DNA of 64,000 bases from Eubacteriales bacterium (GTDB lineage Bacteria > Bacillota > Clostridia > Oscillospirales > CAG-272). The translations under genes and the position numbers were made by a program. The stretch spans positions 1,730-65,729 of the forward strand of contig JAZQWM010000009.1 of assembly GCA_045632345.1 (NCBI GenBank), read 5' to 3'. The notes under the pieces are model-generated. The model searched no databases, had not been told where the DNA came from, and worked only from the letters and a program-made list of their open reading frames with translations. This document shows positions 13,424-61,384 of the stretch, in pieces (position 1 is the first letter of the stretch; each line of letters starts with the position of its first letter).

Positions 13424-13424
13424 C

Positions 13425-34265: not shown

Positions 34266-36281
34266 TTAGCCTTCGTATGCATAGAAGCTTACAGTTGCAT
34301 CTGCAGAAGCTGTAATTGTTACGTTAGTAACGCCCTCGTTCTCGTAGAGATCGAAGAATGTCTCAGCAGAATTTACTGTGTATGTCTTGCTTTCTTCGCC
34401 ACATTCAACTACGATTGTGTACGTAGTATCAGCAGATGCGCTTGAAAGCTTGATAATGCCCTTAGAAATATCAATGCTATCTTCTGTTACAGCAAGGCTG
34501 TATGCTACGTTAGCTGTAAGTGTTGTTGGTTCAGCTGGATTTCCGTAGCCCTTGAGTTCCCATGAGAGTGATGTGTTCTCGTCGATAACGAGGTCGCCAT
34601 CCATGATTGGCTCATCCATGTATGTTGTTATATCTCTGTATGTAACGTTGCATACTGAACATACAAGACGACCGTCGATGTACTCAGTAAATGGATGCTC
34701 TGTTCTTCTTGTGAAGTCCTTTTGGCACTTTTCTGTACAATCAGCATCGTTTGTACATGCGTAGTATGTATAACCCACAGACGTACATGTTGGATTTACA
34801 ACCTCTTGTGTTAAAATCCATTTATCTTCGCCGTTAGCGCCTACACCGTGCTTAAGAAGTGGTTTTTCTTCTTCAGTATATGTTTGTCTCCACTCTGTGT
34901 TACAATCGCCACATTCCCAAATTGTGTACGCATTCTTAATACATGTTGTAGGAACGAATTCGATTGGATTTCCATCTGCATCAACTGTCTTGTTAATTGT
35001 TGCCTTATGTGGAACTGTTTTAACGTTTCTTTCTTCTCTACAGCCTAAAGTACATGTGGTTTCTGCTGTTGTACTTGTCTCACAAATTGTACACACATAG
35101 AGGTCATAACCATATGCATAGCACTTTGCATCGATAACAGCTGTTGGAGCTTCTGCAAATACGTGGTCAAGCTTTTCGCCTGAGTGTCTCTTTTCTGTTG
35201 CTGTACAAGCAGCATCAGTTGTACACTTGAATTCTTCATATGCAGCCTCGTGACATGTAGCTGCCTTTGAGCTGATTAGCTCATCTGTTACATAGTGAAC
35301 GCCTGTTGCAGGAATCGCTTTAACATAGCTATTGCCAGTATCAGGGTCAATCTCAACGTCAAGAATTTCACCACATTCAGGTCTCATACACTTAGGTGTA
35401 ATTGTACCTTCTGTGATACACGTTGGCTCTACTCTTGTGATGTAGTCAACGTTTTCGTAATCAACTAAGTGTCCATTAGCCCCATCGTGTTCACCAGGAA
35501 GAACGTTCTTCTCTGTACAGCCTGCGTTTAAGCACTCATAATAGTCGTAACCAGGAAGTGTACACGTTGGTCGGTTCCATTGAACGTTCTCTTCGTCCCA
35601 ATCGTGACCGAGAGCGTCAGCAGTTTTAACTGTCCATGTTTCATCACATACTGTACATTTAAAGTTGTCTGTACCCTCTGTTAAGCATGTAGCTGGGGAA
35701 GAACCTGTTTGAACTTCTGTGTGTGGGAGTTTTGGAATTTCATCAACCTTACCACGAGCACCACATGTCTTACAAACTTGTGATACTGAGCCAGGAGCCT
35801 TACATGTAGCTTCTACTGTAACCTGTTCGTAATCATGCGCCCATCTAACTAATTCGCCTGTGCCATCTTCCGCTTCGCCGCAGATTGAACATACAGTCTC
35901 CTCAATACCGTTTTGTTGCTTACCGCAATCAACCGGTGTTGTCATCTTTTTCTCGCTGAAATCATGGAACTCAGCGCTTGACTTAATTTCGTCTTTTGGT
36001 TCACTTTCAGCTCCACATACTGAACATACTTGGTATGTGTAACCGTTATGACGGCATGTTGGCGCTTTAACGATTTCTTCGCCAAACGCGTGAGGAAGTG
36101 CCGCAACTTCTCTTTCCTCTGATTCGCCACATTCACAAGCAAAAATTGCTTTACCTGCAGCTTCACATGTTGCCTCTGTAATAACCTCTGTTTGCTTAAA
36201 GTCATGCTCATGTCCGCATGAAACTAAAACAAATGTAAGAGCTAGTACAGCAAGTACTAATAACAATACTCTTTTTTTCAT
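34266..36281 (-). CDS. Lipoprotein built from about 12 tandem Cys3-His modules plus a C-terminal beta-rich domain
   Basis: 671 aa. Lipobox LVSC|G. Repeated H-x(8-20)-[TK]C-x(8-12)-C-x2-C-x(8-20)-H modules. Has its own TTGACT-17-TATAAT promoter and terminator. Confidence 0.82.
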   Translation of the reverse strand: MKKRVLLLVLAVLALTFVLVSCGHEHDFKQTEVITEATCEAAGKAIFACECGESEEREVAALPHAFGEEIVKAPTCRHNGYTYQVCSVCGAESEPKDEIKSSAEFHDFSEKKMTTPVDCGKQQNGIEETVCSICGEAEDGTGELVRWAHDYEQVTVEATCKAPGSVSQVCKTCGARGKVDEIPKLPHTEVQTGSSPATCLTEGTDNFKCTVCDETWTVKTADALGHDWDEENVQWNRPTCTLPGYDYYECLNAGCTEKNVLPGEHDGANGHLVDYENVDYITRVEPTCITEGTITPKCMRPECGEILDVEIDPDTGNSYVKAIPATGVHYVTDELISSKAATCHEAAYEEFKCTTDAACTATEKRHSGEKLDHVFAEAPTAVIDAKCYAYGYDLYVCTICETSTTAETTCTLGCREERNVKTVPHKATINKTVDADGNPIEFVPTTCIKNAYTIWECGDCNTEWRQTYTEEEKPLLKHGVGANGEDKWILTQEVVNPTCTSVGYTYYACTNDADCTEKCQKDFTRRTEHPFTEYIDGRLVCSVCNVTYRDITTYMDEPIMDGDLVIDENTSLSWELKGYGNPAEPTTLTANVAYSLAVTEDSIDISKGIIKLSSASADTTYTIVVECGEESKTYTVNSAETFFDLYENEGVTNVTITASADATVSFYAYEG

Positions 36282-36514: not shown

Positions 36515-38797
36515 TTAATTATCTGAGGAAGTATTATCATCATCGCTTTCGACGTTTTCAATAATCTCAGCGTCTACTTGCTCTGCATCCTCTTCATCGT
36601 TAAAATCCGTATCATTTGAATCTGCAATTTGAAGAACCTCATCCTCGTCATCAAGCAAGCCAAGCTCTTTTTCAAGACGGCGGCGTTCTTCTAATTTTTT
36701 ACGATTTTCTTCTTCGATAGCCTTACGCTTTTCTTCCTCAAGCTTTTCAGCTCTTCTTTTGTTTTCCTCTTCGCTTCTGCGCTTCTTTTCGGTAACTAGG
36801 TTTTCAACCTGTTCCATTGTTGCGCCCTCTGTCATAGCAAGAGCAAACTGCTCGTCATCCATGATTTCGTATTTAAGAAGGAATTCCGTTATAAAGTCAA
36901 GCTTTTCTCTGTATTTTTCAATGGTTGAGTATGCAAGATTATAAGCATCATCAACAATTTTTTTGATTTCCGCATCAATTTTAGATGCTGTGCTTTCTGA
37001 ATAGCTTGGTGTTGAGCTGAAATCTCTGCCTAAGAATACCTCATCGCTACCGTGATTTGAACCAAAGTGGATTGTGCCAAGCTCGCTGCTCATACCGTAA
37101 ACCGTAACCATTTTTCTTGCAGTTTCGGTAGCGCGCATAATATCGTTAGATGCTCCGCCTGTATAGTCATCAAATACGATTTGCTCAGCAACTCTACCGC
37201 CAAGCATCATAGCGATTCTTTCCTGCATTTCTTTTTTGGACTCACTATATTTATCCTCAGTTGGTGGAGTTAAGGTGTAGCCTAATGCTCTGCCGCTTGG
37301 AATAATTGAAATTTGGCGAACAGGGTCTTGAGTTTCAAGAACGTGAGCAAGAATTGCGTGTCCTGCCTCGTGAACTGCTGTGTTTCTCTTTTCCCTCTCA
37401 CTCATTTTTCTTGCTTTCTTTTGTGTACCTACCGTTACCTTAATCATGGCATCCTCGATTTCGGTCATACCGATAAGAGTTTTGCCGTTTCTTGCAGCAA
37501 GTAAAGCTGCCTCGTTAAGTAGGTTTGCAATATCTGCACCCGTGAAGCCAACAGTTGTTTGAGCAATTTTGTGCATATCAACAGTTTCTTCAAATGGCTT
37601 ACCCTTAGAGTGAACATGTAAAATCGCTTCTCTGCCCTCTAGGTCTGGATAGCCTATTGTTACCTGTCTATCAAATCTGCCCGGTCTTAATAATGCTGAG
37701 TCAAGAATGTCAGGACGGTTAGTTGCCGCCATAACGATAATGCCCGATTGTGTACCGAAGCCATCCATTTCAACTAAAAGCTGATTAAGTGTTTGCTCTC
37801 TTTCATCATGGCCGCCGCCTAAGCCTGCACCTCTTTGACGTCCTACTGCGTCAATTTCATCAATGAATATAATTGCGGCAGGTGTTTTTCTTGCTTGCTC
37901 AAATAAATCTCTTACACGGGAAGCACCTACACCAACATAAAGCTCAACGAAGTCTGAGCCTGACATTGAGAAAAATGGTACGCCTGCTTCGCCTGCAACT
38001 GCCTTGGCAAGCAATGTTTTACCTGTACCCGGAGGGCCTACTAATAATACGCCTCTTGGAATTTTCGCGCCAAGCTGTGTAAATCTTGCAGGGTTACGAA
38101 GGTATTCAACTACCTCCTTTAATTCTTCCTTTTCCTCTTCAGCGCCTGCTACGTCGTCAAAGGTTACGTTTTTAACAGTTGACTGTACTGCCTTTGATTT
38201 ACCGAAGCCGCCCATTTTTCCGTTACCTTGGCTACGGAATAAGAAAAACATTGACACGCCAATAACGATTACTAAAATAATCGTAGGAAGGTATTGCATA
38301 AAAGCAGACTGCTGCTTTAATGCCTTTGTGCTTGTTTTAAATGAGCTGTCAACGCCTTGTGCGTCAAGCTCATCCTTGATTGTGTATAGTAAGCTATTGG
38401 CTACGCCTACGTTTGTGCCAAAGAACTCAATGTACTCCTCGTAGGTAAGTGTTATAGTTTTAACCTTTTTAGCAAGGTCTTTATCATTTCTGCTATTTCC
38501 GTCAAAATAGTTATCCCAATCCTCTTTTGATTCAAAGATTGTTACTGTGTATTTATTGATGTTTCTAATGTAACCGTAAACTCGTCTTGTCTTTTCCGGA
38601 ACGTCAGTTTCATCAATTACGCCATCTCCGTTTGAATCTACGGGTATAGCTACAACCTCTTGAAATTTAGCCACCATATCGTCATACGTTAGCGGTTTTT
38701 CATCGTTATTCTGCTTGAACATTGCAAAAATTGCAATCATGATAGCTGTGATTATTATGAAGTAAAAAATATAAGTTATAACGTTACTCTTCTTCAT
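36515..38797 (-). CDS. ftsH: ATP-dependent zinc metalloprotease FtsH (with long charged C-terminal extension)
   Basis: 760 aa. Walker [12 protein letters not shown], zinc motif HEAGHA. Confidence 0.97.
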
Positions 38798-38828
38798 TTA
38801 TCCGAAGCACCTCCTGTTTATGTGGTAT

Positions 38829-40163
38829 TTATATTTTTTTAACTCTGTACACTTTTATATTTGTTTCGCCGTTTTTTGATTTAGCCTCATCGCGTGTTGC
38901 AACCAGCGGTATATAAAGTATTCCATTTTCATCGCAAATTAGCGGAATTTTATCTCTGTAATGGGACGGGATATGCTTATCGCAGAAAATGGTTTTTAAT
39001 TTTTTGGTCATTTTGCCTTGAATCATTTTGTCGCCGTCTTTTTTGTTTCTGACAATCAGCTTACCCTCGGATTTTAAAATTACCGTTTCAACGTGCTCGT
39101 ACTTCTTTAAGTCAGGAACCATTTCCGTGTTAACGGCAATAGCTGTCTTTATTTCCTCAATGTAATTAAGACCTTCTCTTAGTGCTTTGTTGTATTTTAG
39201 CTTAATTAAGTTTTCTGTGTTTACAAACTTAACGTATCCTCTTTCCTTTTTGAATGAGGTTTTATTAGGCAAATTGATATATTGACCTACATTGCCACTT
39301 TCTGCTAATTTCAAGCATGCGTCTATTGATTTTCTATCAAGAGTGTCTCTTGAAATCGTTAAGAGTAATCTTGATGCGATTGGTCTTTCCAATGAATTAA
39401 GAAGATCTGTGCTTACTCTTGTTCTAATTCTGTTTTCTTCAATGATTTTGTCGCAAGCATCCTGAATAAATTTATCGTCATCGCGAAGAAGCTCGCCCAT
39501 TCTAAGACATGAATCAATAAACGATGGATTAATTTTTTCGAGCATTGGAATTACTTCGTGTCTTATATAATTTCGAGTATAATCTGTGTCAAGATTAGTA
39601 GAGTCGTTTACGAAGGTAATTGAATTTTTCTTGCAATATTCGAGAATTTCTTCCTTGGAGCAATAGATAAGAGGTCTTACAACGTTATTAGCCACAGGCT
39701 TAATTCCAGCAATTCCCTTTGCTCCGCTTCCTCTTGATAAATTAAATATTACAGTTTCAGCATTATCGTTTGCATTATGGGCAGTTACAATACATTTATA
39801 GTCGCTGTTTTGTGAAATTATTTTATTAAAGATTTTATATCTTTCTTCTCTTGCCGTTTCCTCAAGGCCTTGCTTTCTTTCCTCAGCCAAATATGGAACG
39901 TCAATACGGAAGGATAAAAACTTTACGCCGAGCTTTTTGCACATGTTTTTACAGAAAAACTCGTCTCTTAGCGCTTCCTCGCCTCTTATCATATGATTGA
40001 TATGAATCGCTAAAAGCTTTTTTGTTTTCTTTGACAAATAATGCAGTATTGCGCTTGAATCCGCTCCACCTGAAAAGCCTATTATAGCGCCTTCATAAAT
40101 ATTACTCATTTCATATTGCTTGATAGCTTTTTCAATCTTATTTTCCACAACTAAAATCCTCAA
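38829..40163 (-). CDS. tilS: tRNA(Ile)-lysidine synthetase
   Basis: PP-loop GFSGGADSS. The ORF begins at TTG 40163. GTG 40148 is a plausible real start (gagga 8 nt upstream). Confidence 0.9.
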   Translation of the reverse strand: MRILVVENKIEKAIKQYEMSNIYEGAIIGFSGGADSSAILHYLSKKTKKLLAIHINHMIRGEEALRDEFFCKNMCKKLGVKFLSFRIDVPYLAEERKQGLEETAREERYKIFNKIISQNSDYKCIVTAHNANDNAETVIFNLSRGSGAKGIAGIKPVANNVVRPLIYCSKEEILEYCKKNSITFVNDSTNLDTDYTRNYIRHEVIPMLEKINPSFIDSCLRMGELLRDDDKFIQDACDKIIEENRIRTRVSTDLLNSLERPIASRLLLTISRDTLDRKSIDACLKLAESGNVGQYINLPNKTSFKKERGYVKFVNTENLIKLKYNKALREGLNYIEEIKTAIAVNTEMVPDLKKYEHVETVILKSEGKLIVRNKKDGDKMIQGKMTKKLKTIFCDKHIPSHYRDKIPLICDENGILYIPLVATRDEAKSKNGETNIKVYRVKKI

Positions 40164-40244
40164 ACTGTATTTATTTTTTACGATTTATGCTTAAAGAAAA
40201 TTTGCTTTGTATATAATACTATAAAAAATATAAAATTTCAAGAG

Positions 40245-40277
40245 AAAAAAAGAAAAAACCGCTTTTTTCAGCGGTTG
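40245..40277 (-). terminator. Terminator after the 85-aa ORF
   Basis: aaccgc-ttttttca-gcggtt, with a long U-run on the minus strand. Confidence 0.6.
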
Positions 40278-40286
40278 TTCAGAATT

Positions 40287-40544
40287 TCAACACATTTGAT
40301 CGAAAATTATGTACTTTATTGTGCCCTCACAGGCTTTATTTTTTACTAAAAACTTGAATATTCTTAATGCCTCACTTCTATCGGTCGTTAGGTTCATTAC
40401 TTTTTCGCAGCTTTGCTTATTAGTTAACAGATTATTCTCAATGCAAATTATTGAATACTTTTTATTAAACTCCACTAGCTGATACGTTTCTGTAACGTTC
40501 TTCGTTACCTTTAAGGTTTCGCTTTTGCAAATTTTACTTTTCAT
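40287..40544 (-). CDS. Hypothetical small protein
   Basis: 85-aa ORF with RBS gaggt and a terminator downstream. I recognise no family. Confidence 0.5.
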   Translation of the reverse strand: MKSKICKSETLKVTKNVTETYQLVEFNKKYSIICIENNLLTNKQSCEKVMNLTTDRSEALRIFKFLVKNKACEGTIKYIIFDQMC

Positions 40545-40752
40545 GATATACCTCGGTTTTAAATTGTACTGCTAAATTAAATAGCTTCCAAAATTATACC
40601 ACAAAAATTTTTAAGTTCCGTCAAACCCGTTTTTATTATATAGTATAGCAGCTTCGATAATCTTTAATAAAGTTCCTTTATTTAATTGCCACTTATTACC
40701 GGTTGTAAAAATTTTGTTATCATGCTAAGATTTTAGTAAAAGGGGGGAACTT

Positions 40753-40968
40753 ATGAAGGATAAGGATAAATTAAAATTTTTGTATCTTCTGAAAGGATTA
40801 TGGCTTTATGCTATTCTTTTCGGTTTTTTAGCTTTAAGGTTAGAGCTTGGAGTTTTTTGCGGTAATATACTTAGAATTGAAGTAGATACTACATATATGC
40901 TTGACAGCTTAGTTGCAACAAATTTTATCCTTGGTGGAGCTAGCTTTTTGGTTTTCAAGTATTTTTAG
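40753..40968 (+). CDS. Hypothetical small membrane protein (2 TM)
   Basis: 71-aa ORF with a strong RBS (aaagggggg) and two hydrophobic helices. Confidence 0.5.
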   Translation: MKDKDKLKFLYLLKGLWLYAILFGFLALRLELGVFCGNILRIEVDTTYMLDSLVATNFILGGASFLVFKYF

Positions 40969-41018
40969 TTTTGTGCAAAATGCCAATTTGACAGTTTTTT
41001 CAAAAATTTCCAACACCG

Positions 41019-41372
41019 GAAAATGAATATTTTTTTGTCAAGATGAAAATTGATAATTTTTTAAATTCTACACGTTGATTTTTGGCAAATGAATAAAATG
41101 AGGTGCCACTTTTCCACTTTTCCACGGTCTCTTTCCGTGGAAAAGTGGAAAAGTGCCGTGATTTGGCTTGAGTTTTGCACGGTTTCCACGGAGTTTTCCA
41201 CGTTTTTAGCATTTTCGCACACTAAAGCGTGGATATTTTCTGTTTTATACATTTGCCTATCTTGATTGTGCAACATTAACAAATTTAGTTAGTAAACTAA
41301 TATATTTTCGCGATTTGGACACCAAATTATTTTTAGAAAAATGAATAAAGACAATAGCCGAAAATGAATAAA
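41019..41372 (+). repeat. Four same-orientation AAATGAATA(AA) words flanking the DnaA-box cluster
   Basis: Copies at 41021-41029, 41087-41097, 41339-41349 and 41362-41372. Confidence 0.8.
41107..41236. promoter_or_regulatory. Cluster of eight DnaA-box-like 8-mers, including a perfect 21-bp inverted repeat
   Basis: TTTTCCAC at 41110, 41118 and 41194. Inverted GTGGAAAA at 41137 and 41145. TTTTGCAC at 41173, GTTTCCAC at 41182, inverted GTGGATAT at 41229. Palindrome arms 41107-41127 and 41135-41155. Confidence 0.6.
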
Positions 41373-41515
41373 TTTTTACAGCTTTTCGACAATAAAATCT
41401 GTTGTTTTTTGTAGAATAATATCATTTATGATAATATTTTGTGTTTTTCATTTTTTCATGGTCAAAATGCATAAATTGTTAACTTTTCTTTAATATTGAA
41501 ATTTGTGTTTGGCAT

Positions 41516-41552
41516 AAAACAAAAAAGGATTTTGCATCTGCAAAATCCTTTT
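41516..41552 (-). terminator. Terminator after the DUF1846 gene (hairpin also usable on the plus strand)
   Basis: aggattttgca-tc-tgcaaaatcct flanked by A-runs and T-runs. Confidence 0.7.
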
Positions 41553-41562
41553 CAAATTTTAA

Positions 41563-43047
41563 TTAACCGTGGAATAATTTTTTCGTTTGGTAAACAGGCT
41601 CACAGGTCAGATTAACACCTAGCTTTCTAAAGGTTGCTGTATCAACAGGACTTAAGATAACTGTTGAATGTAGCTCTGCTCCCTTAAGAAGCTTTAATGC
41701 ATCCATTGCTTTCTTAGCTTCTTTATCGGTTGCCGCTGTTATGGCAAGAGCAATAAGCACCTCGTCGGTATGTAATCTTGGATTGTGATTTCCTAAATTT
41801 TCGATTTTTAACTTTTGTACAGGCTCTAATACGTCATGGGAAATAATATCTATATCCTTATCAATGCCGGCTATTGCTTTAACTGCATTTATAAGTGCGG
41901 CAGAGGATGAGCCTAAAAGCGAGGTTGTTTTTCCTGTAACTACTCTACCGTCGCAAAGCTCGATTGCTACGGCAGGAGCGCCTGTTTCCTCTGCTTTATC
42001 AAGAGCAGCTTGAATACATTTTCTTTGCTTAACTGTAATATCACTTTGATTCATAAGAAGCTTGATTTTGTTTATTTCGTCTTGGCAATCACAGCCCTTT
42101 CTTTGAATGCAAAGAGCATTATAGTATCTTCTTATAATTTCGTTTTTAGCAGCTTCTCTTACTGCTTCATCATCAATGATGCAGTTGCCAGCCATATTAA
42201 CACCCATGTCTGTTGGGGATTTATATGGACATTTACCCATAATTCCCTCGTACATTGCACGAAGAACAGGGAAAATTTCAACGTCGCGGTTATAATTGAT
42301 TGCAGTTTCTCCATATGCTTCTAGATGGTATGGGTCAATCATGTTTATATCGTTTAAGTCGGCAGTTGCAGATTCGTAAGCTACGTTTACAGGGTGTGAA
42401 AGAGGAATGTTCCAAATTGGGAACGTTTCAAACTTTGCGTATCCTGCCTTTACTCCATGCTTATGGTCATGATAAATTTGAGAAAGACACGTTCCCATTT
42501 TACCGCTTCCCGGTCCAGGAGCTGTAACGATTACTAAGGATCTTTCCGTTTCAACGTACTCGTTTTTACCGAAGCCGTTCTCGCTTACTACCTTAGCAAC
42601 GTCATATGGATAATTTTCTATTTCAAAATGCTTATATACCTTAATGCCCTTGCTTTCAAGAGTCTTTTTGAAGCTTTCTACAACTGAGGTTGCGCTATAT
42701 CTTGCAAGCACAACGCTTCCTACAAATAAGCCGAAGCCACGGAATGCATCAATTAAACGGAAGGTTTCAAGGTCATAGGTAATACCAAGGTCGCCTCTTA
42801 TTTTATTTTTCTCAATATCATGCGCGTTTACAACGATGATAACCTCTGCTTGATCCTTTAATTCAGCAAGCATTTTAATTTTACTGTCAGGAGCAAAGCC
42901 AGGTAACACTCTAGAAGCGTGATGGTCATCAAAGAGCTTTCCGCCGAATTCAAGATATAGCTTATCTCCGAATTGGCTTATTCTTTCCTTGATTTTTTCT
43001 GATTGAGTTTTAAGATACATTTCATTATCAAAGCCTATTTTGTACAT
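41563..43047 (-). CDS. DUF1846 / UPF0371 family protein (function unknown)
   Basis: 494 aa. The N-terminus MYKIGFDNEMYLKTQSEKIKERI...LYLEFGGKLFDDHHASRVLPGF matches my memory of the UPF0371 family. Starts 3 nt after the pfp stop. Confidence 0.7.
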   Translation of the reverse strand: MYKIGFDNEMYLKTQSEKIKERISQFGDKLYLEFGGKLFDDHHASRVLPGFAPDSKIKMLAELKDQAEVIIVVNAHDIEKNKIRGDLGITYDLETFRLIDAFRGFGLFVGSVVLARYSATSVVESFKKTLESKGIKVYKHFEIENYPYDVAKVVSENGFGKNEYVETERSLVIVTAPGPGSGKMGTCLSQIYHDHKHGVKAGYAKFETFPIWNIPLSHPVNVAYESATADLNDINMIDPYHLEAYGETAINYNRDVEIFPVLRAMYEGIMGKCPYKSPTDMGVNMAGNCIIDDEAVREAAKNEIIRRYYNALCIQRKGCDCQDEINKIKLLMNQSDITVKQRKCIQAALDKAEETGAPAVAIELCDGRVVTGKTTSLLGSSSAALINAVKAIAGIDKDIDIISHDVLEPVQKLKIENLGNHNPRLHTDEVLIALAITAATDKEAKKAMDALKLLKGAELHSTVILSPVDTATFRKLGVNLTCEPVYQTKKLFHG

Positions 43048-43050
43048 TGT

Positions 43051-44283
43051 TCAATATCCTCTTATCTTAAAATGAACGGGAAGCCCGTTTTCGTATTTTA
43101 TATTTCTTTCGCCTATGATTAAAGGAGCTATATACTCCATACATTCATTTGTAACGTTGTTTTTCTCAGGGCTTATATAGTTAGCGGGAACAAATTTGAC
43201 CTTATTGGCTATTTTTTCTATATCCTCATATGAAAGCTCAATCTGATAGTCTCTTGAGCTTTTTCTTTTGAATACAACCATTTTGCCGTTTATTCCCTTT
43301 TCAGCACATTCTGCTGCATACCTTCCAATAGCAACGCTTTCAGAAATATCGGTTGCTGATGCAATGTGAGACGAGCATCTTTGAGGCAAGCTCAATTCAA
43401 CTGAGCGCACCTTACAGTCAATCTGCTCTCTTATCATAATTTCAAGAGATTTTCCCGCACCGGACAAATATTTATGTCCAAATGCATCAACTGCTCCGCT
43501 TTGCGTGTTTTCGCTCACGTATATTCCGTTTGAATATTTAATTCCCTCACTTACTGCTATAACGACGTTTGATTTTTCAGTAAACAGCTTATTTACTGAA
43601 GAAATAAGCTCCTCACCGCTAAAGCTAACCTCAGGCAAATAAATAAGGTCTGCTCCGTTGTTGCCGAAATATTTCGGTAAGCCTGCAGAGGCTGTAAGCC
43701 AACCTGCATCTCTGCCCATAATTTCAATAATTGTAACCGCGTTGCAAAGATAGCACGCAGTATCACGAGCAATTTCCTGAACGGTGGTTGATATATATTT
43801 AGCAGCTGAGCCAAAGCCAGGAGTATGATCTGTGATTACCAGGTCATTATCAATAGTTTTTGGAATACCGATTACGTTAATTTTATAATCGCAGCTTTTT
43901 GAATATTCGCTAATCTTTGACACGGTATCCATAGAATCATTACCGCCGATATAGAAAAAGTAACGAATATCGTTTCTTTTAAAAATATCAAAAATCCGCT
44001 GATAAATTGTAATATCTTCCTTTACGCTTGGAATTCTTTTACGGCATGAGCCAAGAGCAGATGCAGGGGTTGATTCCAATAAAAAAAGCTGCTCTTCATT
44101 ATCAAACAAGTAAGATAAATCAATAAGGTTTTCATTAAGAAAGCCTTCAATTCCGTTTTTCATTCCGAATAATTTTTTAATTGATTTAGACGTGCTTGCT
44201 CCTCTGATAACACCCGAAAGAGTAGCGTTGATAGCTGAGGTGGGTCCGCCTGACTGTCCGATTATTGCGTTTCCTACTAACAA
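43051..44283 (-). CDS. pfp: Phosphofructokinase, PPi-dependent type predicted
   Basis: The ORF runs to 44301. I moved the start to TTG 44283 (aaggaga RBS upstream). GQSGGPTSAINA, GGNDS and PKTIDNDL; Asp and Lys at the two PPi-versus-ATP marker positions. Confidence 0.82.
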   Translation of the reverse strand: MLVGNAIIGQSGGPTSAINATLSGVIRGASTSKSIKKLFGMKNGIEGFLNENLIDLSYLFDNEEQLFLLESTPASALGSCRKRIPSVKEDITIYQRIFDIFKRNDIRYFFYIGGNDSMDTVSKISEYSKSCDYKINVIGIPKTIDNDLVITDHTPGFGSAAKYISTTVQEIARDTACYLCNAVTIIEIMGRDAGWLTASAGLPKYFGNNGADLIYLPEVSFSGEELISSVNKLFTEKSNVVIAVSEGIKYSNGIYVSENTQSGAVDAFGHKYLSGAGKSLEIMIREQIDCKVRSVELSLPQRCSSHIASATDISESVAIGRYAAECAEKGINGKMVVFKRKSSRDYQIELSYEDIEKIANKVKFVPANYISPEKNNVTNECMEYIAPLIIGERNIKYENGLPVHFKIRGY

Positions 44284-44313
44284 TAAAATTCTCCTTAACA
44301 AACCACAAGAAAT

Positions 44314-44342
44314 AGTATATCATATTATAAAATAAAAGTCAA
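44314..44342 (-). promoter_or_regulatory. Promoter of pfp-DUF1846
   Basis: Gene-sense TTGACT-17-TATACT with TGa extended -10. Confidence 0.55.
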
Positions 44343-44541
44343 ACAAATTAAGATAAAATATTTCTTTTTTTATTTATTATTTTCATTTTTCGCAAAATTC
44401 ACTCGTTTTTTAAACGTTTTAGTCAAAATAAACAAAAATTTTAAAAATATTTTGAAATTTCTATTTATTTTAATCAAAAATTGTGATATAATATAATCAA
44501 CAAAGGAAGTTCCTTTGAATTTACTCACAAGAGGTGATTTT

Positions 44542-45072
44542 ATGAAGATGAATTTTACGGCAAGACAAATGAAGGTTTATGAATCTGTGAAATTAACCGC
44601 AGAGAAAAAGCTATCCAAGTTCGATAAGTTCTTTGATGATGGCGCAGAAATGGATGTTACCTTCTCCATGCCTAAAAATCTTGAAAAGGTTGAAATTACC
44701 ATCTATGCAAGCGGCATGATGTTTCGTGCTGAGGAAGCTGCTGAAACGTTTGCAACCGCTATTGACAGAGCAAGTGAGGCCCTTGAAAGACAAATTAGAA
44801 AAAACAAAACAAGACTTCAAAAGCGTGTTAAGGACGAGGGCTATGCCATAGTAGATGAAGAATATCCATACCTTGAAGAAGAAGAAATTTTACTTGAAGA
44901 GGTAAAAATCAAAACATTTTCATTTAAGCCAATGTCCCTTGATGAAGCAATTTTACAAATGAATCTTTTAGGACATGATTTCTACGTATTTAAGGATGCG
45001 GAAAACAATGAAACCTGTGTAGTTTATAAGCGCAAGGCAGGGGGATACGGCTTAATCGTTCCTGAGTTATAA
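44542..45072 (+). CDS. hpf: Ribosome hibernation promoting factor, long form
   Basis: The ORF runs from 44515. I moved the start to ATG 44542 (agaggtga RBS). An S30AE domain plus the C-terminal dimerisation domain (KPMSLDEAILQMNLLGHDFYVF). Confidence 0.92.
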   Translation: MKMNFTARQMKVYESVKLTAEKKLSKFDKFFDDGAEMDVTFSMPKNLEKVEITIYASGMMFRAEEAAETFATAIDRASEALERQIRKNKTRLQKRVKDEGYAIVDEEYPYLEEEEILLEEVKIKTFSFKPMSLDEAILQMNLLGHDFYVFKDAENNETCVVYKRKAGGYGLIVPEL

Positions 45073-45078
45073 TACAAC

Positions 45079-45111
45079 AAAACCACCCTGTTTTTGCAGG
45101 GTGGTTTTTTA
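45079..45111 (+). terminator. Terminator after hpf
   Basis: ccaccctg-tttttg-cagggtgg followed by TTTTTT. Confidence 0.85.
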
Positions 45112-45170
45112 AGGTGCGAGGGTCATGGGGTATGGCGTCTAGCTAGCCACTTGTTACTGTCGCCTATTAA

Positions 45171-45209
45171 CAAAAAAGCAAATGAAATTGTAGTTTCATT
45201 TGCTTTTTA
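45171..45209 (-). terminator. Terminator after the E2-like acyltransferase gene
   Basis: 11-bp stem agcaaatgaaa / tttcatttgct flanked by A-runs and T-runs. Confidence 0.8.
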
Positions 45210-45211
45210 CG

Positions 45212-46093
45212 TTATCTTATGTCTTTTATAACCGTTTCCGGTGGAGTATCAAGAACCTCAGGCTTTTTAAAGAGCGTGCGCATATATTTCATGGCAGAGG
45301 CGTAATAGAAGCCGTCGCAAATTCTTTCATCAAGGTTATAGGTAACCTCAACGTAGTTGTATTTATAGACACTTCCGTCGGGATTTACTCTAAACTCTCT
45401 TTGCTTTGCGCCAAATGCGCAGAAGGTCGGAACGTTACCGAAATCGTAAAGGTGATGAACGATTGGCGGAATACCAAGTGAGCCCATTGAGGTAATAAAG
45501 AATGATGCGTGGAATGGGCTGAGATTTGTAAGCGCCTTTGGAAGAAGTCCCCAGTAATCAAGGAAGCGTAAAAATCTTACCGTCCATCTTAGAAAAATGC
45601 CTGGGATATAGTTAATAATTTTAATGAGCTTATCTAAGCCGTTTTTCTTAACCTCTCTGTATTCCTCAATTTTATCGTTTAATTGATTATATACGTCCTC
45701 GGCTGTGCAATCAGGCTTAACCATAATTTTAATAACGGTATCAGGAGATTCAAGCGTCATTTCCTTTTTGATTACAAGGCAAATTTCAACGTTCTCTCTT
45801 GAATATATTTTTTGACCTCTGATAAAACGGTTGATTGCAGGTCTTTGTGAGCAAGTTCTTGCATATGCTGCAACTAAGATATGCATCATATTGAAGTTTT
45901 TTAAGCCCTGCTCCTGCTTCTTCTTTATGTATTTATCAATAGGGGTTAAATTTATTTTATCAAAAATAAAGTTTTGTGAGCCGATACGATTTTCCATAAT
46001 AAACGGAATTAAGCGTGCCATTGGAGAAATTCCGCGCACTCTATGTACCTTATTCTTTAGCGGCTTTACCTTGACCTTTTTTTCTTTTTTCAT
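45212..46093 (-). CDS. 2-oxoacid dehydrogenase E2 / CAT-like acyltransferase catalytic-domain protein (no lipoyl domain)
   Basis: The ORF runs to GTG 46102; ATG 46093 has the better RBS. The C-terminal LDERICDG sits where E2/CAT enzymes carry DHRxxDG. Confidence 0.6.
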   Translation of the reverse strand: MKKEKKVKVKPLKNKVHRVRGISPMARLIPFIMENRIGSQNFIFDKINLTPIDKYIKKKQEQGLKNFNMMHILVAAYARTCSQRPAINRFIRGQKIYSRENVEICLVIKKEMTLESPDTVIKIMVKPDCTAEDVYNQLNDKIEEYREVKKNGLDKLIKIINYIPGIFLRWTVRFLRFLDYWGLLPKALTNLSPFHASFFITSMGSLGIPPIVHHLYDFGNVPTFCAFGAKQREFRVNPDGSVYKYNYVEVTYNLDERICDGFYYASAMKYMRTLFKKPEVLDTPPETVIKDIR

Positions 46094-46242
46094 GCTGTCC
46101 ACCCATTTAAGTTTAATTTCAGTTTAATTTAAGGTAGATATATTTTACCATATTTTTCGCAATTTGTACAGTACTTTTTTGTTTTTTTCAATGACTTGTC
46201 AACATTTTTAAAAGAAAATAGCGACACATGCCTCAGTTTTTA

Positions 46243-46271
46243 TTGATTTTAGCAATAAAATGTGATATAAT
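46243..46271 (+). promoter_or_regulatory. Promoter of deoB-cdd-pdp
   Basis: TTGATT-17-TATAAT with TGa extended -10. Confidence 0.55.
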
Positions 46272-46307
46272 TAAATTGAAAAGAAACTAACGACAAGGGG
46301 GATAAAT

Positions 46308-47468
46308 ATGAAGAGAATATTTTTAACTGTGCTTGACAGCTTTGGCGTTGGCTATTTGCCCGACGCAGATAAATTTGGAGACATGGGAGCTAACACGCTA
46401 AAGAGCGTTGCAAAAAGCGAAAGCTTAAATATACCTAACCTTATTAAATGCGGTCTTGGAAACATAGACGGTGTTGACGCTATCTCAAAATGCGACACAC
46501 CTACCAGCATATACGGTAGATTAAGAGAAAAATCTATGGGCAAGGACACAACCGTTGGACATTGGGAAATTGGCGGTATTGTATCAGACAGCCCGTTGCC
46601 TACGTATCCAGACGGATTTCCAAATGAGGTTTTAGAGGAGTTTACCGCTCTTACCGGCTACGGTGTATTATGTAATAAGCCATATTCGGGAACTCAGGTT
46701 ATAAATGATTATGGCAAGGAGCATCTTGAAACAGGAAAGCTGATTATTTACACATCTGCTGACAGCGTATTTCAAATTGCGGCTCACGAGGAGCTTGTTC
46801 CTCTTGAAAAGCTATACTCTGTGTGCGAAATTGCAAGAAAAATGCTTGTAGGTAAGCACGGAGTTGGCAGAGTTATTGCAAGACCATTTGTGGGAGAATA
46901 TCCTAATTTTAAGAGAACGGCAAACAGACGCGATTTTTCGCTTGAGCCAACAGGCAAAACTGTGCTTGATGCATTATATGAAAGTAAATTTGATGTAATT
47001 TCAGTTGGCAAGATTTACGATATATTTGCCCATCGCGGAATTAGTGAATATCATTTGACACATTCCAATACTGAGGGCATTGCTAAAATGCTTGAAATTA
47101 TGGAGCGTGATTTTAACGGTCTTTGCTTTACAAATTTAGTTGATTTTGATATGCTTTACGGACACAGAAACGATGCTAACGGCTATGCAGCTGCTTTAAG
47201 TGAGTTTGACTTATGTATCCCTGAGATTACGAAGCGACTTAACGATGATGATATTTATATTATCACCGCAGACCATGGCTGCGACCCTGGAGATGTTAGC
47301 ACAGACCATACAAGAGAGTATGTGCCTATTATTATTCTTGGCAAGAATATTGAAAGTAAAAATATCGGCACTATTGATTACTTCTCCACCATTGCTAAAA
47401 CTATTGGAGATTTAATGGGACTTGACTATGAATGTAAGGGCACTTCCCTTGCAAATTTAATTAAGTGA
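46308..47468 (+). CDS. deoB: Phosphopentomutase
   Basis: 386 aa. LDSFGVG, GKDTTVGHWE, TADHGCDP. Confidence 0.95.
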   Translation: MKRIFLTVLDSFGVGYLPDADKFGDMGANTLKSVAKSESLNIPNLIKCGLGNIDGVDAISKCDTPTSIYGRLREKSMGKDTTVGHWEIGGIVSDSPLPTYPDGFPNEVLEEFTALTGYGVLCNKPYSGTQVINDYGKEHLETGKLIIYTSADSVFQIAAHEELVPLEKLYSVCEIARKMLVGKHGVGRVIARPFVGEYPNFKRTANRRDFSLEPTGKTVLDALYESKFDVISVGKIYDIFAHRGISEYHLTHSNTEGIAKMLEIMERDFNGLCFTNLVDFDMLYGHRNDANGYAAALSEFDLCIPEITKRLNDDDIYIITADHGCDPGDVSTDHTREYVPIIILGKNIESKNIGTIDYFSTIAKTIGDLMGLDYECKGTSLANLIK

Positions 47469-47477
47469 GGTAATAAA

Positions 47478-47882
47478 ATGATAAATTACGAGGAGCTTGT
47501 TCAGCTAGCACTTTTTTCAAGGCAAAGAGCTTATTCGCCTTATTCAAATTTTAAGGTTGGCGCGTATCTTTTAGATGCTAACGATGAATGCTATTACGGC
47601 TGTAATATTGAAAACGCTTCCTACTCTGCTACAATTTGTGCGGAAAGAGGCGCGTTTATGCAGGCGGTATCTGTTGGAACCAGAAAATTCAAGGCGATTT
47701 GCATTGTGGGCGGAACTAATGAAATTACAGATTTTTGCTACCCCTGTGGCGTTTGTTTACAGTTCATGAGTGAATTTTGCGATAAGGATTTTGAAATCGT
47801 ATTGTTTAACGGCAAGGAAATTCGAGTACATACTCTTGGAGAGCTTTTGCCATACGTATTTGATAAGGAACAATTAAAATGA
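47478..47882 (+). CDS. cdd: Cytidine deaminase
   Basis: 134 aa. CAERGA and PCGVCLQ zinc ligands. Confidence 0.94.
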   Translation: MINYEELVQLALFSRQRAYSPYSNFKVGAYLLDANDECYYGCNIENASYSATICAERGAFMQAVSVGTRKFKAICIVGGTNEITDFCYPCGVCLQFMSEFCDKDFEIVLFNGKEIRVHTLGELLPYVFDKEQLK

Positions 47883-49177
47883 GAGCTTACGATATTATTT
47901 ATAAGAAAAGACAGGGGCTTGCTAACTCAAAAGAAGAAATTGAGTTTATGATTAACGGATATATGTCCGGAGACGTGGCTGATTATCAAATTTCAGCATA
48001 TCTTATGGCTATTTGCTTTAACTCAATGAATGAAGCTGAAACCTTTTACTTAACCGACGTAATGATGCGCTCGGGAGACTTAGTTGATTTAAGTCAATTT
48101 GGCAATTTATCCGTTGACAAGCACAGTACAGGCGGGGTTGGCGATAAAACAACGTTAATTGTTGCGCCTATTGTCGCTTCTCTTGGTTGCAAGGTTGCTA
48201 AAATGTCCGGTCGCGGTCTTGGTCATACAGGTGGCACGGTTGATAAGCTGGAGTCATTAGACGGATATAAATCTTCTCTTTCATCAGAGGAATTTTTAGG
48301 TCAGGTTGAAAGCGTTGGTATTGCCGTTACGGGACAAAGCGGAAATTTAGCTCCTGCTGACAAAAAGCTATACGCGTTAAGAGACGTAACTGCAACTATT
48401 GACTGCATACCTTTAATTGCTTCAAGCATTATGTCAAAGAAGCTAGCATCAGGTGCTAACACTATCGTTCTTGACGTAAAGTGTGGCAGCGGAGCTTTTA
48501 TGAAAGACCCCGAAAGTGCAAAAGCGTTGGCTAAGGCTATGATTGATATTGGCAAGAAATTTGGAAGAAACGTTCGTGCTTTAATTACAAACATGGACGT
48601 GCCTCTTGGCTCCTTTGTGGGTAACGCGTTAGAGGTTTATGAGGCAGTACAGGTATTAAGCGGTAAGGGCGAAAAAAATCTTACTGAGATTTGTATTTCT
48701 CTTGCTTCAAATATGGTTTCTCTTTCATTGAATATTGATATTGATGAAGCGAAATCGCGTGTTGAAAATGCTATATCAAGCGGTAAGGCACTTGAGAAAA
48801 TGAAGGAATGGATAGATGCTCAAGGCGGAGATATTGCTCCTTTAAACGAGCCAAGCTTACTTCTTAACGCTCCATGCAAAAAGGAATATAAAGCTGCTAC
48901 AAGCGGCTATATTTCAAAGATCAATGCGGAACGCGTCGGAATTGCATCAATGCTTTTAGGTGCAGGCCGTGCTAAGAAGGACGATATTATTGATTATCGT
49001 GCCGGCATCGAGCTTATATGCAAGCAGGGTCAATACGTAAATAAGGGCGACACACTTTGCGTGCTTTATTCATCAAATGAAGATTTATTTAATTCCTGTG
49101 AAGGAAAACTAGAGGAAGCTTTTTCATATGATACACGTGCTGTAAATGACAGCAAGCTGATTTACGATATATTATAA
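47879..49177 (+). CDS. pdp: Pyrimidine-nucleoside (thymidine) phosphorylase
   Basis: 432 aa. DKHSTGGVGDKT, SGRGLGHTGGTVDKLES. Overlaps cdd by 4 nt. Confidence 0.94.
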   Translation: MRAYDIIYKKRQGLANSKEEIEFMINGYMSGDVADYQISAYLMAICFNSMNEAETFYLTDVMMRSGDLVDLSQFGNLSVDKHSTGGVGDKTTLIVAPIVASLGCKVAKMSGRGLGHTGGTVDKLESLDGYKSSLSSEEFLGQVESVGIAVTGQSGNLAPADKKLYALRDVTATIDCIPLIASSIMSKKLASGANTIVLDVKCGSGAFMKDPESAKALAKAMIDIGKKFGRNVRALITNMDVPLGSFVGNALEVYEAVQVLSGKGEKNLTEICISLASNMVSLSLNIDIDEAKSRVENAISSGKALEKMKEWIDAQGGDIAPLNEPSLLLNAPCKKEYKAATSGYISKINAERVGIASMLLGAGRAKKDDIIDYRAGIELICKQGQYVNKGDTLCVLYSSNEDLFNSCEGKLEEAFSYDTRAVNDSKLIYDIL

Positions 49178-49181
49178 AATT

Positions 49182-49213
49182 ACTGCCTACGAAAATTTCG
49201 TAGGCAGTTTTTC
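49182..49213 (+). terminator. Terminator after pdp
   Basis: ctgcctacg...cgtaggcag stem followed by TTTTT. Confidence 0.85.
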
Positions 49214-49222
49214 AAACATGTA

Positions 49223-49251
49223 TTGATTTTATAAATTTTTAGGTATATAAT
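49223..49251 (+). promoter_or_regulatory. Promoter of the PHP-domain gene
   Basis: TTGATT-17-TATAAT. Confidence 0.5.
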
Positions 49252-49284
49252 ATAAGCGATAATATAAAATGAGGTAAATTTAAG

Positions 49285-49950
49285 ATGTTTAAAACGGAAT
49301 TACATTGCCACTCAAACGATATTAGCGCATGCGCTAGAGTTGGCACTACGGAAATTATAGATACGTTTGTTAAGGCGGGATATTCTTCTCTCGTTTTAGC
49401 TAACCACCTAAACAGCTGGACAGTTGATAATATTTGTCCTAACGACTGGAACGGATTTGTTGACAAGTATTATGAGGCTTACGAGAAACTAAAAAAGGAC
49501 GCTGAGGGTAAATTAAATATTTTATTTGGTGCGGAGCTAAGATTTAACGGAAGCAACAATGACTATTTAGTTTTCGGTATGACTAAGGAATTTTTATATG
49601 AGCATCCGGATATTTTTGATTTACATGCTGAGAAGTTCCACAATCTTGCCAAAGAAAATAACATGCTCTTTATTCAAGCCCACCCATTTAGAAACTGGAT
49701 GATGGTAATTGACCCAAGAATGGTTGACGGCGTTGAGGTATTTAACGGACATTTCGGTCATGATTCAAGAAATGAAATTGCTGACATGTGGGCTGAAAAG
49801 TTTAATTTAATTAAGACATCAGGCACAGATTTCCACTATATTACATCCCCTGCAAACGGTGGTATTTTCACAGAGGAAGAAATTACCGATATGGCTCAGC
49901 TTGTTGAAATTTTAAAGAGCGGCAATTACACTTTAAATAGAGATTGCTAA
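49285..49950 (+). CDS. PHP-domain metal-dependent phosphoesterase
   Basis: 221 aa. N-terminal ELHCHS; later HPF and DFH metal-ligand-like positions. Confidence 0.7.
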   Translation: MFKTELHCHSNDISACARVGTTEIIDTFVKAGYSSLVLANHLNSWTVDNICPNDWNGFVDKYYEAYEKLKKDAEGKLNILFGAELRFNGSNNDYLVFGMTKEFLYEHPDIFDLHAEKFHNLAKENNMLFIQAHPFRNWMMVIDPRMVDGVEVFNGHFGHDSRNEIADMWAEKFNLIKTSGTDFHYITSPANGGIFTEEEITDMAQLVEILKSGNYTLNRDC

Positions 49951-53248: not shown

Positions 53249-53282
53249 AGCTTTTCTCCTTAATATATACAATTACAATAAA

Positions 53283-53311
53283 ATTTTATCATATTTAGTT
53301 ATAATTGTCAA
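53283..53311 (-). promoter_or_regulatory. Promoter of giant paralog 1
   Basis: Gene-sense TTGACA-17-TAAAAT with TGa extended -10. Confidence 0.6.
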
Positions 53312-53373
53312 TAAATCGAGCGATATATATGCGTTTTTGGCAACAATGCACAAAACAATATTTTTATTTTTAT

Positions 53374-53406
53374 GCAAAAAAGCAAGAGGCTTAGCCTCTT
53401 GCTTTT
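53374..53406 (-). terminator. Terminator after giant paralog 2 (GCAAGAGG stem family)
   Basis: agcaagaggc-tta-gcctcttgct flanked by A6 and T4. Confidence 0.8.
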
Positions 53407-53411
53407 CTATT

Positions 53412-56288: not shown

Positions 56289-56323
56289 TTTCAGTTCTCC
56301 TTATAATATATTGTTACGATTTA

Positions 56324-56352
56324 AGTTTACCATATTTTGTTCTATTTGTCAA
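56324..56352 (-). promoter_or_regulatory. Promoter of giant paralog 2
   Basis: Gene-sense TTGACA-17-TAAACT with TGg extended -10. Confidence 0.6.
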
Positions 56353-56394
56353 TAATCTCATAATTTTCAAATTGTTTTTATTCAATTTGCACAA

Positions 56395-56427: not shown

Positions 56428-56441
56428 CATTAAGATTTGAA

Positions 56442-61349: not shown

Positions 61350-61384
61350 TTTGGTTTCTCCTTTAAGATATATAATATATATTA

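Follow-up and report, generated by a model that had tools for sequence, protein, structure and literature searches.

Bacillus subtilis carries stable clusters of DnaA boxes outside its chromosomal origin, oriC. They are intergenic, lie mostly near the origin, and their position is not conserved between species (PMC3245932). Here we describe a conserved non-coding element of about 410 bp which is located beside the genes tilS and ftsH in a stretch of 64,000 nt from a Eubacteriales bacterium (assembly GCA_045632345.1, contig JAZQWM010000009.1); this whole stretch is called the window throughout. On the evidence of its sequence, DnaA probably binds this element cooperatively as a conserved box cluster away from oriC, akin to the DnaA-box clusters of B. 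subtilis and to datA of Escherichia coli. The element is an unusually well-conserved and highly ordered version of a known locus type, and its host clade consists of uncultured gut Clostridia.

The likeness to the B. subtilis clusters is that of intergenic multi-box arrays off oriC in a Firmicute. The clusters of B. subtilis bind DnaA stably, restrain initiation and sometimes regulate neighbouring genes. Their boxes are of consensus grade, whereas the boxes of the element are off-consensus (G or T at position 9, T at position 3) and are arranged around a palindromic core. The element further adds a fixed spacing and extra invariant motifs.

In E. coli the loci datA, DARS1 and DARS2 are conserved non-coding regions with defined DnaA boxes, some of them opposed, and with sites for accessory proteins; their role is to modulate DnaA and not to start replication. 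Among relatives both their sequence and their location are conserved, and they act via IHF or Fis and by ATP hydrolysis or nucleotide exchange. The Firmicutes are not known to have this proteobacterial system. The element likewise is a conserved non-coding locus with a set of boxes, some opposed, and with candidate sites for accessory proteins. It has no sequence relationship to datA or DARS, and nothing in its sequence points to an effect on the nucleotide state. Another comparison is with the A-site hairpins, i.e., single-stranded DNA with a dnaA box in the stem on which the primosome assembles in a DnaA-dependent manner in single-stranded enterobacterial plasmid DNA. There, as in the element, DnaA-box sequences build the stem of a long perfect hairpin; in contrast to the plasmid sites, there is no sign that the chromosomal element is ever single-stranded.

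The unwinding module of Firmicute origins consists of two tandem boxes, a GC spacer, at least three DnaA-trios (3'-GAT-5') and a DNA unwinding element rich in A+T (PMC8287927, PMC6669920, PMC7561715). The element has tandem boxes 0-3 bp apart, an A+T-rich region nearby and the box type which is present in the dnaA-dnaN spacers of Subdoligranulum and Vescimonas. It differs from such an origin in that it has no evident trios beside the boxes, no adjacent dnaA and no strand switch.

An ordered element upstream of tilS

The element was delimited with an nhmmer core profile and with two alignments, A3 and A4, the latter comprising 12 sequences; 11 loci were used for the density of matches to the DnaA matrix of B. 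subtilis, from which the bit scores below are taken. Its parts are as follows; orf71 is the small gene which ends at the element.

40969-41376, no strand: whole conserved non-coding element (about 410 bp)
40972-40980, minus strand: flanking box TTTTGCACA, 8.6 bits, the sole TTWTNCACA match of the region
41036-41099, no strand: invariant non-box motifs on the orf71 side, TGTCAA (41036-41041), TTCTACA (41066-41072) and ATTTTTGGCAAATGAATAAAAT (41078-41099)
41107-41155, no strand: palindromic core, a tandem TTTTCCAC TTTTCCAC with a period of 8 bp facing two inverted boxes over a loop
41173-41201, plus strand: three-box direct-repeat module, TTTTGCACG, GTTTCCACG and (GAG)TTTTCCACG, 9 and 12 bp apart from start to start
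41228-41236, minus strand: extra box ATATCCACG, 7.0 bits
41267-41275, minus strand: flanking box-like site TGTTGCACA, 5.4 bits, a conserved block TTGT..ACA in A4
41276-41303, plus strand: promoter-like site TTAACA-16 nt-TAATAT from a consensus scan, directed away from the boxes
41337-41371, no strand: repeat pair ATGAATA / TTATTCAT in the A+T-rich arm (direct-repeat families D1, D2 and D4)

The profile finds exactly one full copy at each of 12 related loci (E-values 8e-110 to 2.5e-51) and zero extra copies elsewhere in the 2.3 Mb of fetched loci. In all 12 genomes or contigs the element sits 0.5-0.9 kb upstream of tilS, with an identity of TilS to that of the window of 47-100%. A sequence-only reading of the window had remarked on tilS-ftsH next door and had counted absence from close relatives as an argument against itself; what we find is a region which is conserved at 12 loci and which travels with the tilS-ftsH pair. 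The searches agree on this point. A scan with the DUF1846 protein encoded across the element yielded 80 loci, and the element was carried by the three closest only (L001-L003), because it travels with tilS and not with DUF1846; at or below 86% identity of the DUF1846 protein the tilS-ftsH pair is located elsewhere. A pattern scan of metagenomes gave one true homolog, a diverged copy in L187 beside a tilS which is 55% identical; its second match turned out to be an unrelated GC-rich hairpin and was rejected. When contigs were fetched via TilS homologs, each of them contained the element, at TilS identities of 77, 63, 58, 54, 51, 51 and 47%. A blastn comparison of the element with plasmids returned zero matches. 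Upstream of the tilS of Vescimonas, which lies behind rplI-dnaB, there is no such element.

In genomes in which tilS has just 53-77% identity at the DNA level, the box columns retain 82-96% identity to the window, and the palindrome's loop drifts (18-45% identical to the window). The three direct boxes are invariant or nearly so and their spacing is fixed in the 12 genomes of A4 (GTGGAAAA, 4 nt, GTKGAAA, GTGNAAAA). The inner boxes of the palindrome are invariant in the same 12 genomes, and the outer ones switch to TTTTCAAC/GTTGAAAA, partly in step. Further invariant or nearly invariant stretches of A4 are TGTAGAA, TTGACA, TT...CA..TG.C.AAAAT, the ATATTCA / TTTATTCA repeats, TTGCACAAA and TTAGT-N2-ACTAA. 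Boxes which are conserved while the loop varies are the pattern expected of protein-binding sites, and the alignment indicates a strong purifying selection on the boxes. Judged in this way, selection acts on the boxes rather than on pairing or coding, and the element is by all signs of its alignment a cis-acting DNA site with the palindrome at its core.

This palindrome is exact. As the sequence-only reading had claimed, it is a perfect 21-bp inverted repeat: the arms, 41107-41127 and 41135-41155, are 100% complementary and enclose a loop of 7 nt. Folded as single-stranded DNA, a segment of 121 nt reaches -29.4 kcal/mol, with z = -6.1 compared to shuffled sequences. The octamer TTTTCCAC occurs eight times on the two strands of the 64 kb, against 3.2 +/- 1.7 in shuffles, and five of these eight copies fall within the 92 bp from 41110 to 41201. 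The Poisson chance of at least five copies in any 100-bp interval is about 1e-9 to 1e-11. The other octamers of the cluster were located as well, TTTTGCAC at 41173, GTTTCCAC at 41182 and GTGGATAT at 41229-41236. All eight DnaA-box-like 8-mers which had been proposed are present; the proposed fit to the degenerate 9-mer did not survive. Position 9 is T or G in each of the eight boxes, none of them (0/8) matches TTWTNCACA, and each is two mismatches off TTATCCACA. TTWTNCACA itself is not enriched in the window (9 observed, 9.3 expected).

Two more conserved boxes, TTTTGCACA and TGTTGCACA, have A at position 9 and flank the cluster on either side. The TTTTGCACA box lies in the invariant TTGCACAAA block which abuts the stop codon of orf71 (columns 443-451 of A4); the TGTTGCACA box-like site abuts the -35 hexamer of the promoter-like site. 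The extra box at 41228-41236 is found in the window, L001, L003 and L189, and in the remaining genomes a GTKGAAAA is located nearby in varying orientation.

Several motifs of the element are not boxes. The motifs at 41036-41099 correspond to the invariant columns TTGACA, TGTAGAA and TT...CA..TG.C.AAAAT of A4. A sigma-70 promoter composed of the invariants TTGACA and TAGAA[T/A] was considered and rejected as no pairing has a legal spacing. On the other side of the cluster, the promoter-like match at 41276-41303 recurs at the same alignment columns in 8 of the 12 genomes and may act as a promoter. Its spacer contains the palindrome TTAGT-N2-ACTAA (41289-41300), which is retained in L187 through a change on both sides, TTAGTCGACTAA. 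Copies of the ATGAATA / TTATTCAT type are present not only at 41337-41371 but also at 41023-41029 and 41089-41095. TTTATTCA does not vary in A3, and 11 of the 12 A4 sequences have it unchanged; in the group L192-L196 the corresponding motif reads TTATTCAC, which is nearer to a DnaA box. The ATGAATA repeats at 41337-41371 frame a tiny open reading frame (ORF), MNK[G/D][N/K]S[R/L]K, in about 8 of the 12 genomes (minus-strand sense in the relatives). Half of its variable sites are second codon positions, so this looks like conservation at the level of DNA and not of a peptide. Small ORFs inside the element are neither credible nor kept in frame among the relatives.

The cluster adjoins an A+T-rich stretch of about 280 bp, as had been noted before; 41237-41520 has 77% A+T compared with 61.5% for the whole window. 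The Spo0A-box-like TTCGACA reported from this stretch does exist at 41385-41391, and it is not conserved in the three closest relatives (L001-L003). A block at 41410-41440 has the look of a dif site; its spacing does not fit and it is conserved in the closest clade only, and it was set aside. Resemblances to sigma-54, sigma-H, CtsR, CIRCE, CodY and ARG-box sites, judged by eye, fitted poorly and were dropped. The 16-bp palindrome of parS is absent from the window at up to two mismatches.

The boxes and DnaA

Compiled from 84 instances the logo of the element's boxes reads A-S-TTTT-[C74 G9 T1]-[C70 A12 G2]-A-C-[G39 T30 A12 C3], in short A-S-TTTTC[C/A]AC-[G/T/A]. The DnaA matrix of B. subtilis, built from 150 experimentally bound sites, has C78 T43 A16 G13 at position 5 and C100 A45 at position 6, and is near-invariant at positions 2, 4, 7 and 8 (PMC4447404, table S3). 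The boxes of the element vary at positions 5 and 6, which are those that DnaA tolerates, and in both sets positions 2, 4, 7 and 8 are tight. When sites with at least 5 bits under this matrix are counted in 400-bp stretches, the element ranks first in 11 of 11 loci, with 10-17 sites compared to a maximum of 7-11 elsewhere. The purifying selection, the variable positions tolerated by DnaA and the top matrix density in all 11 loci together lend support to the earlier proposal of a DnaA-box cluster outside oriC. For clostridial origins a cluster has been defined as at least three boxes TTWTNCACA with at most one mismatch and a mean spacing below 100 bp (quoted in PMC7561715). By this definition the element has eight boxes (TTTTCCACT twice, TTTTCCACG three times, TTTTGCACG, TTTTGCACA and TGTTGCACA) in about 300 bp, 40972-41275.

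Is this box type used at true origins? The sequence-only reading had made its case depend on the boxes at the oriC of its own genome; in relatives of the family the answer is yes. The dnaA-dnaN spacer of Subdoligranulum variabile, with both genes confirmed by Pfam, contains AAGTTTTCAACA, an overlapping tandem TAGTTTTCAACTTTCAACA, CGTTTTCCACGG and an inverted ATTTCAACA. It then continues AAATCCACA-GCCCC-TATTACTACGTCTA, i.e., a box, a GC spacer and CTA/TTA trios. Among its boxes are TTTTCCAC, TTTTCAAC, TTTTCAACA and TTTTCAACT, and CGTTTTCCACGG is an exact 12-mer of the element. Prefix and box read AAG/TAG/CG-TTTTC[C/A]AC. Common to the element and the Subdoligranulum origin are the A/S prefix, C or A at position 6, a position 9 other than A and overlapping tandems. 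Vescimonas fastidiosa has a classical origin region (jag-yidC-rnpA-rpmH, dnaA, dnaN-recF-gyrB-gyrA), and its dnaA-dnaN spacer ends with GGGGGTTTTCCACAAAAGTTTTCTCTACGACTATTATTACTAAAAAATAC. In this sequence CTA/TTA trios are preceded by a weak second box and by a TTTTCCACA box, the one that counts as neighbour of the trios. The arrangement rpmH-dnaA is shared by Vescimonas, Subdoligranulum and Monoglobus, the last being a member of another order according to NCBI; the former two also have dnaN beside dnaA. The element's box type thus serves at a genuine dnaA-linked origin within the family, and this is carried to the organism of the window by extension.

The records L221-L223 (NZ_AP023416.1, NZ_OY725740.1 and OY725844.1), listed in PLSDB as plasmids, contain core genes of the chromosome, rpmH-dnaA-dnaN-gyrBA or others. 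Such records represent pieces of chromosomes or second chromosomes (pMM35_01 of Vescimonas has 861 kb) and constitute a trap for plasmid surveys.

The three-box module recurs outside the element. A scan of viral contigs with its pattern gave 23 contigs from at least six families (L197-L219; GC 29-58%). In these arrays the unconstrained base ahead of GTGG is always T, which results in canonical boxes, TGTGGAAAA and TGTGGA[A/T]AA, in the form TGTGGAAAA-CTn-TGTGGAAAA-TGTGGA[A/T]AA (e.g., L199 6851-6874 and L213 1786-1809). One viral family alternates TGTGGATAA with TGTGGAAAA in a single array. In one phage family, e.g., L199, the module is located between the genes of the large terminase and an SPP1-type portal. 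Annotation of the genes next to arrays in L082 and L179 with Pfam and PHROG gave nothing useful, and matches of the 16-mer TTTTCCACTTTTCCAC in viral contigs were mostly single and scattered. A chromosomal case is found in Vescimonas at a distance of 34 kb from dnaA, where it lies within the 123 bp that separate mutS from mutL:

12001-12031 of L220, which is 261932-261962 of NZ_AP023416.1: three-box module GGTGGAAAACTTTGTGGAAAAGTGCAAAA of Vescimonas fastidiosa

The geometry of the phage and the mutS-mutL arrays is identical to that of the element, GTGGAAAA-CTnn-GTGGAAAA-n-GTG. They differ in that they are isolated modules of canonical TGTGGA[A/T]AA, whereas the element embeds the module in about 410 bp with a palindrome. 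The recurrence in phages suggests that the three-box geometry is a common DnaA-array module which is reused by mobile elements.

A number of observations weigh against DnaA as the binding partner. Position 9 is A in only 12 of 84 boxes and G or T in 69, whereas in B. subtilis 135 of 150 bound sites (90%) have the consensus A. Position 3 is T in 81 of 84 boxes, compared with A96 G33 T18 of 150 in B. subtilis. Because of these two departures single boxes score only 4-8.6 bits, the consensus reaching 13.5, and at a threshold of 7 bits the element comes out on top in only 6 of 11 loci. The boxes of the arms overlap with a period of 8 bp, which seems tight for two DnaA domains; such an overlap also occurs in the Subdoligranulum origin. 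TGTAGAA, TTGACA and TTAGT-N2-ACTAA are invariant and yet are not boxes, which implies further binding partners. The change on both sides of the outer arms is not predicted by independent sites for monomers. The clusters of B. subtilis shift their position between species, whereas the element stays beside tilS-ftsH down to a TilS identity of 47%. Finally, the comparisons with origins rest on distant members of the family; the TilS match of Vescimonas is 35% over about half of the protein.

Taking both sides together we infer that DnaA is the binder of the element. It would then encounter an ordered array of at least eight DnaA-box-like sites in both orientations, composed of the three-box module (box, 3 nt, box, 0 nt, box), two facing tandem pairs and weaker flanking boxes. 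Since the boxes do not have the consensus A at position 9, single sites should be weak. An array of such sites in a fixed geometry would make occupancy cooperative and set by the concentration and oligomerisation of DnaA. In this manner the element might hold or modulate DnaA and thereby tune initiation, although any effect on the control of initiation is speculative. The element may also set the activity of the small outward promoter at its edge. Local transcriptional control is also possible in view of the box-like site against the -35 of 41276-41303 and the palindrome in the spacer.

Extra-origin DnaA-box clusters are known from few model species and are poorly conserved there, and it is therefore hard to pick their functional features. 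The element represents a natural experiment in which boxes, spacing, palindrome, accessory motifs and genomic address have long been frozen by selection. If DnaA binds, the alignment would map functional positions and spacings, including the systematic avoidance of A at position 9, and the element would be a marker of replication-control regions in metagenome-assembled genomes (MAGs) without cultured representatives.

Other explanations

The alternative which survives best, and which we nevertheless regard as unlikely, is that a different sequence-specific protein reads A-S-TTTTCCAC-G. This would make the element an operator, a centromere-like or an architectural site. The binder might be a small oligomerising protein which reads repeats, or the DUF6514-family protein encoded next to the element:

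40287-40544, minus strand: orf85, a small protein of the DUF6514 family, upstream of tilS, with its own promoter and terminator

On Gram-positive plasmids, contiguous short direct and inverted repeats are read by ribbon-helix-helix proteins which bind centromeres or operators. The contiguous 8-bp tandem boxes and the symmetric arms with their partly coordinated change would suit a binder other than DnaA, as would the way in which positions 3 and 9 deviate from the DnaA consensus, systematically and in a conserved manner, and the conserved A-S prefix. The Pfam model of DUF6514 scores orf85 with 15.2 bits, i.e., below the cut-off, and its homologs in L190 and L194 with 26.3-26.6 bits, above it. 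The predicted structure of orf85 (predicted local distance difference test, pLDDT, 90) has four strands and two helices, and its best matches in the PDB are PUR-alpha repeats, Whirly proteins and WGR domains of PARP. These are all nucleic-acid binders, the strand GTGGAAAA of the repeats is rich in purines, and the gene adjoins the element in 9 of 12 genomes (window, L001-L003, L189, L190, L193-L195). From the model orf85 may be an uncharacterised bacterial nucleic-acid binder of the PUR/Whirly type; searches for DUF6514 homologs found nothing beyond the element's own clade. The fold matches, however, are weak (E-values 0.03-0.1, template modelling score about 0.5), the gene does not adjoin the element in L192, L196 and L187, and there is no consistent neighbour that would be a candidate gene for a repeat-binding protein. 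A bona fide dnaA-dnaN origin is filled with boxes of this type and prefix, the phage version of the three-box geometry is made of canonical DnaA 9-mers, and the variable positions are those tolerated by DnaA. These three points favour DnaA over any such protein.

A combination of both partners can also be imagined, in which the element would be more than a passive sink for DnaA, namely a novel type of site for replication control on the chromosome, away from oriC. The palindrome of DnaA boxes would be extruded as a hairpin or cruciform, with the DUF6514 protein holding the purine-rich GTGGAAAA strand, and would load or release DnaA or the helicase. This would amount to a second site of initiation or restart beside tilS-ftsH which is not linked to dnaA, a scheme that we consider very improbable.

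Equally hard to credit, and if anything harder, is that the element is the chromosomal origin, or a second one, apart from dnaA as in E. coli, with the A+T-rich arm of TTATTCAT repeats as the region which unwinds. The element does have many boxes in both orientations beside an A+T-rich repeat region, its sequence and position are conserved across a wide clade, which is typical of origins, and it sits at a breakpoint of synteny. In L192-L194 the coding bases are directed away from it to 61-74% on the far side and in full on the tilS side. The cumulative GC skew of the window has its minimum near 44 kb; this minimum, however, tracks gene orientation. When GC skew and the skew at third codon positions (GC3) were regressed on orientation and side, no side term emerged within +/-10 kb at eight loci, a test of low power, and scans for breakpoints of the GC skew showed no side effect near the element. 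Of the coding bases of the window 84% have the same direction, which continues across the element and holds for valS beyond it as well. Moreover, no dnaA was found near the element, over 23-41 kb in the window and over 10 kb in eight other genomes: ORFs of the window of at least 120 aa have no DnaA domain, and tblastn gave no match in the window or in the loci which carry the element. The window has no dnaN either. Relatives in the family possess standard dnaA-linked origins with boxes, a GC spacer and DnaA-trios. Beside the strong boxes of the element no run of CTA/TTA or TAG trios is evident by eye, the published pattern being permissive; the three-box module has no conserved sequence on its 5' side, and no box scores high against the consensus. 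The origin-like element which had initially been suggested is not supported.

Least credible of all is that the palindrome works as RNA, be it as terminator or stability hairpin of the orf71 transcript or as a portion of a small RNA. In its favour are the high stability of the hairpin, the transcription of orf71 toward it, some two-sided changes in the outer stem, and the promoter-like site and terminators, which on the other arm could bound a transcript of about 250 nt. Against it, no U-run follows the stem on either strand, a separate and variable hairpin comes directly after orf71, and identical boxes outside the hairpin are equally conserved. The covariation term of RNAalifold is unfavourable (+0.77 kcal/mol), with compensatory change in 3 of 40 pairs. 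The cells of the hairpin are paired to 87%, and pairs which vary are broken about as often as compensated; the pair 269/301, for example, is CG in six sequences, AU in three and unpaired in three, and L003 has an uncompensated TTAT. No Rfam family reaches the gathering threshold, and in E-value mode over 40100-41650 the palindrome was matched only by models of microRNA precursors, far below their cut-offs.

The genomic neighbourhood

The window is an ordinary piece of chromosome of low GC (38%) from an uncultured member of the Clostridia; the closest public entry is a MAG from faeces assigned to Eubacteriales, and related MAGs are labelled Oscillospiraceae. Among its genes are obg, trmD, rimM, nusG, rplK, rplA, rpsI, rplM, ftsK, pnp and the aro operon, further ftsH, tilS, the DUF1846 gene, a pyrophosphate-type phosphofructokinase (PFK) gene, hpf and valS. 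The 64 kb, which include several operons for ribosomal proteins and one for aromatic amino acids, contain no tRNA genes and no Rfam families at the gathering threshold. Apparently the leader and riboswitch families known from model Firmicutes are absent or too diverged in this lineage. The genes and signals closest to the element, in addition to orf85, are:

36515-40163, minus strand: ftsH (36515-38797) and tilS (38829-40163), identified by Pfam and by synteny in 12 genomes or contigs
40753-40968, plus strand: orf71, a gene for a small hydrophobic protein, antisense to tilS, with signals of its own, ending at the element; no Pfam family
41522-41553, minus strand: intrinsic terminator of the DUF1846 gene, a 14-bp stem followed by a T run, outside the element
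41563-43047, minus strand: DUF1846 gene, pointing into the element

The two sides of the element differ. On the tilS side the order is constant, i.e., the element, an antisense gene like orf71, usually the DUF6514 gene, tilS, ftsH, a protein of about 700 aa, pheA and the aro operon. ORFs of 70-81 aa resembling orf71 are found at the same place in at least eight genomes, with homologs 53-96% identical within the closer clade; orf71 evolves fast. The protein after ftsH (34266-36281, minus strand; 671 aa in the window and 626-735 aa in relatives) has no Pfam domain and is present in this place in the whole clade except L189.

On the far side the genes vary and occur in either orientation: DUF1846, Band_7, Lipase_3, beta-lactamase-fold, defence and BspA-like leucine-rich-repeat (LRR) genes. 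A location between convergent gene ends, as the sequence-only reading described it, is correct for the window; in relatives the far side is replaced by these other genes. By comparison of the loci, the convergent setting is a local accident, a block which ends with DUF1846 having been placed against the element in this lineage. The terminator of the DUF1846 gene is present only in the window, L001 and L002 and marks the boundary of the rearrangement.

The block itself can be traced. It contains genes for a PHP-like protein, pyrimidine-nucleoside phosphorylase, cdd and phosphopentomutase and extends via hpf and PFK to DUF1846. In the window it occupies 41563-49950, across the element, and in L189 it occupies 10225-17941, downstream of ftsH. 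Its translocation did not invert it, and one of the breakpoints coincides exactly with the edge of the element. L003 has an insertion of about 300 bp right after the DUF1846 gene (3273-3600), with short tandem CCTACAT/CCTATAT and TTCGCAA-type units, which is absent in the window, L001 and L002. The variable content of the side away from tilS is seen at 50303-61394 and 24905-26662 of the window as well as in L190 (1-4077), L195 (71-6020) and L196 (273-3648). It comprises BspA-type LRR proteins of up to 1650 aa and, in relatives, genes of defence type: GmrSD, an nSTAND NTPase, a resolvase fragment and GGGtGRT.

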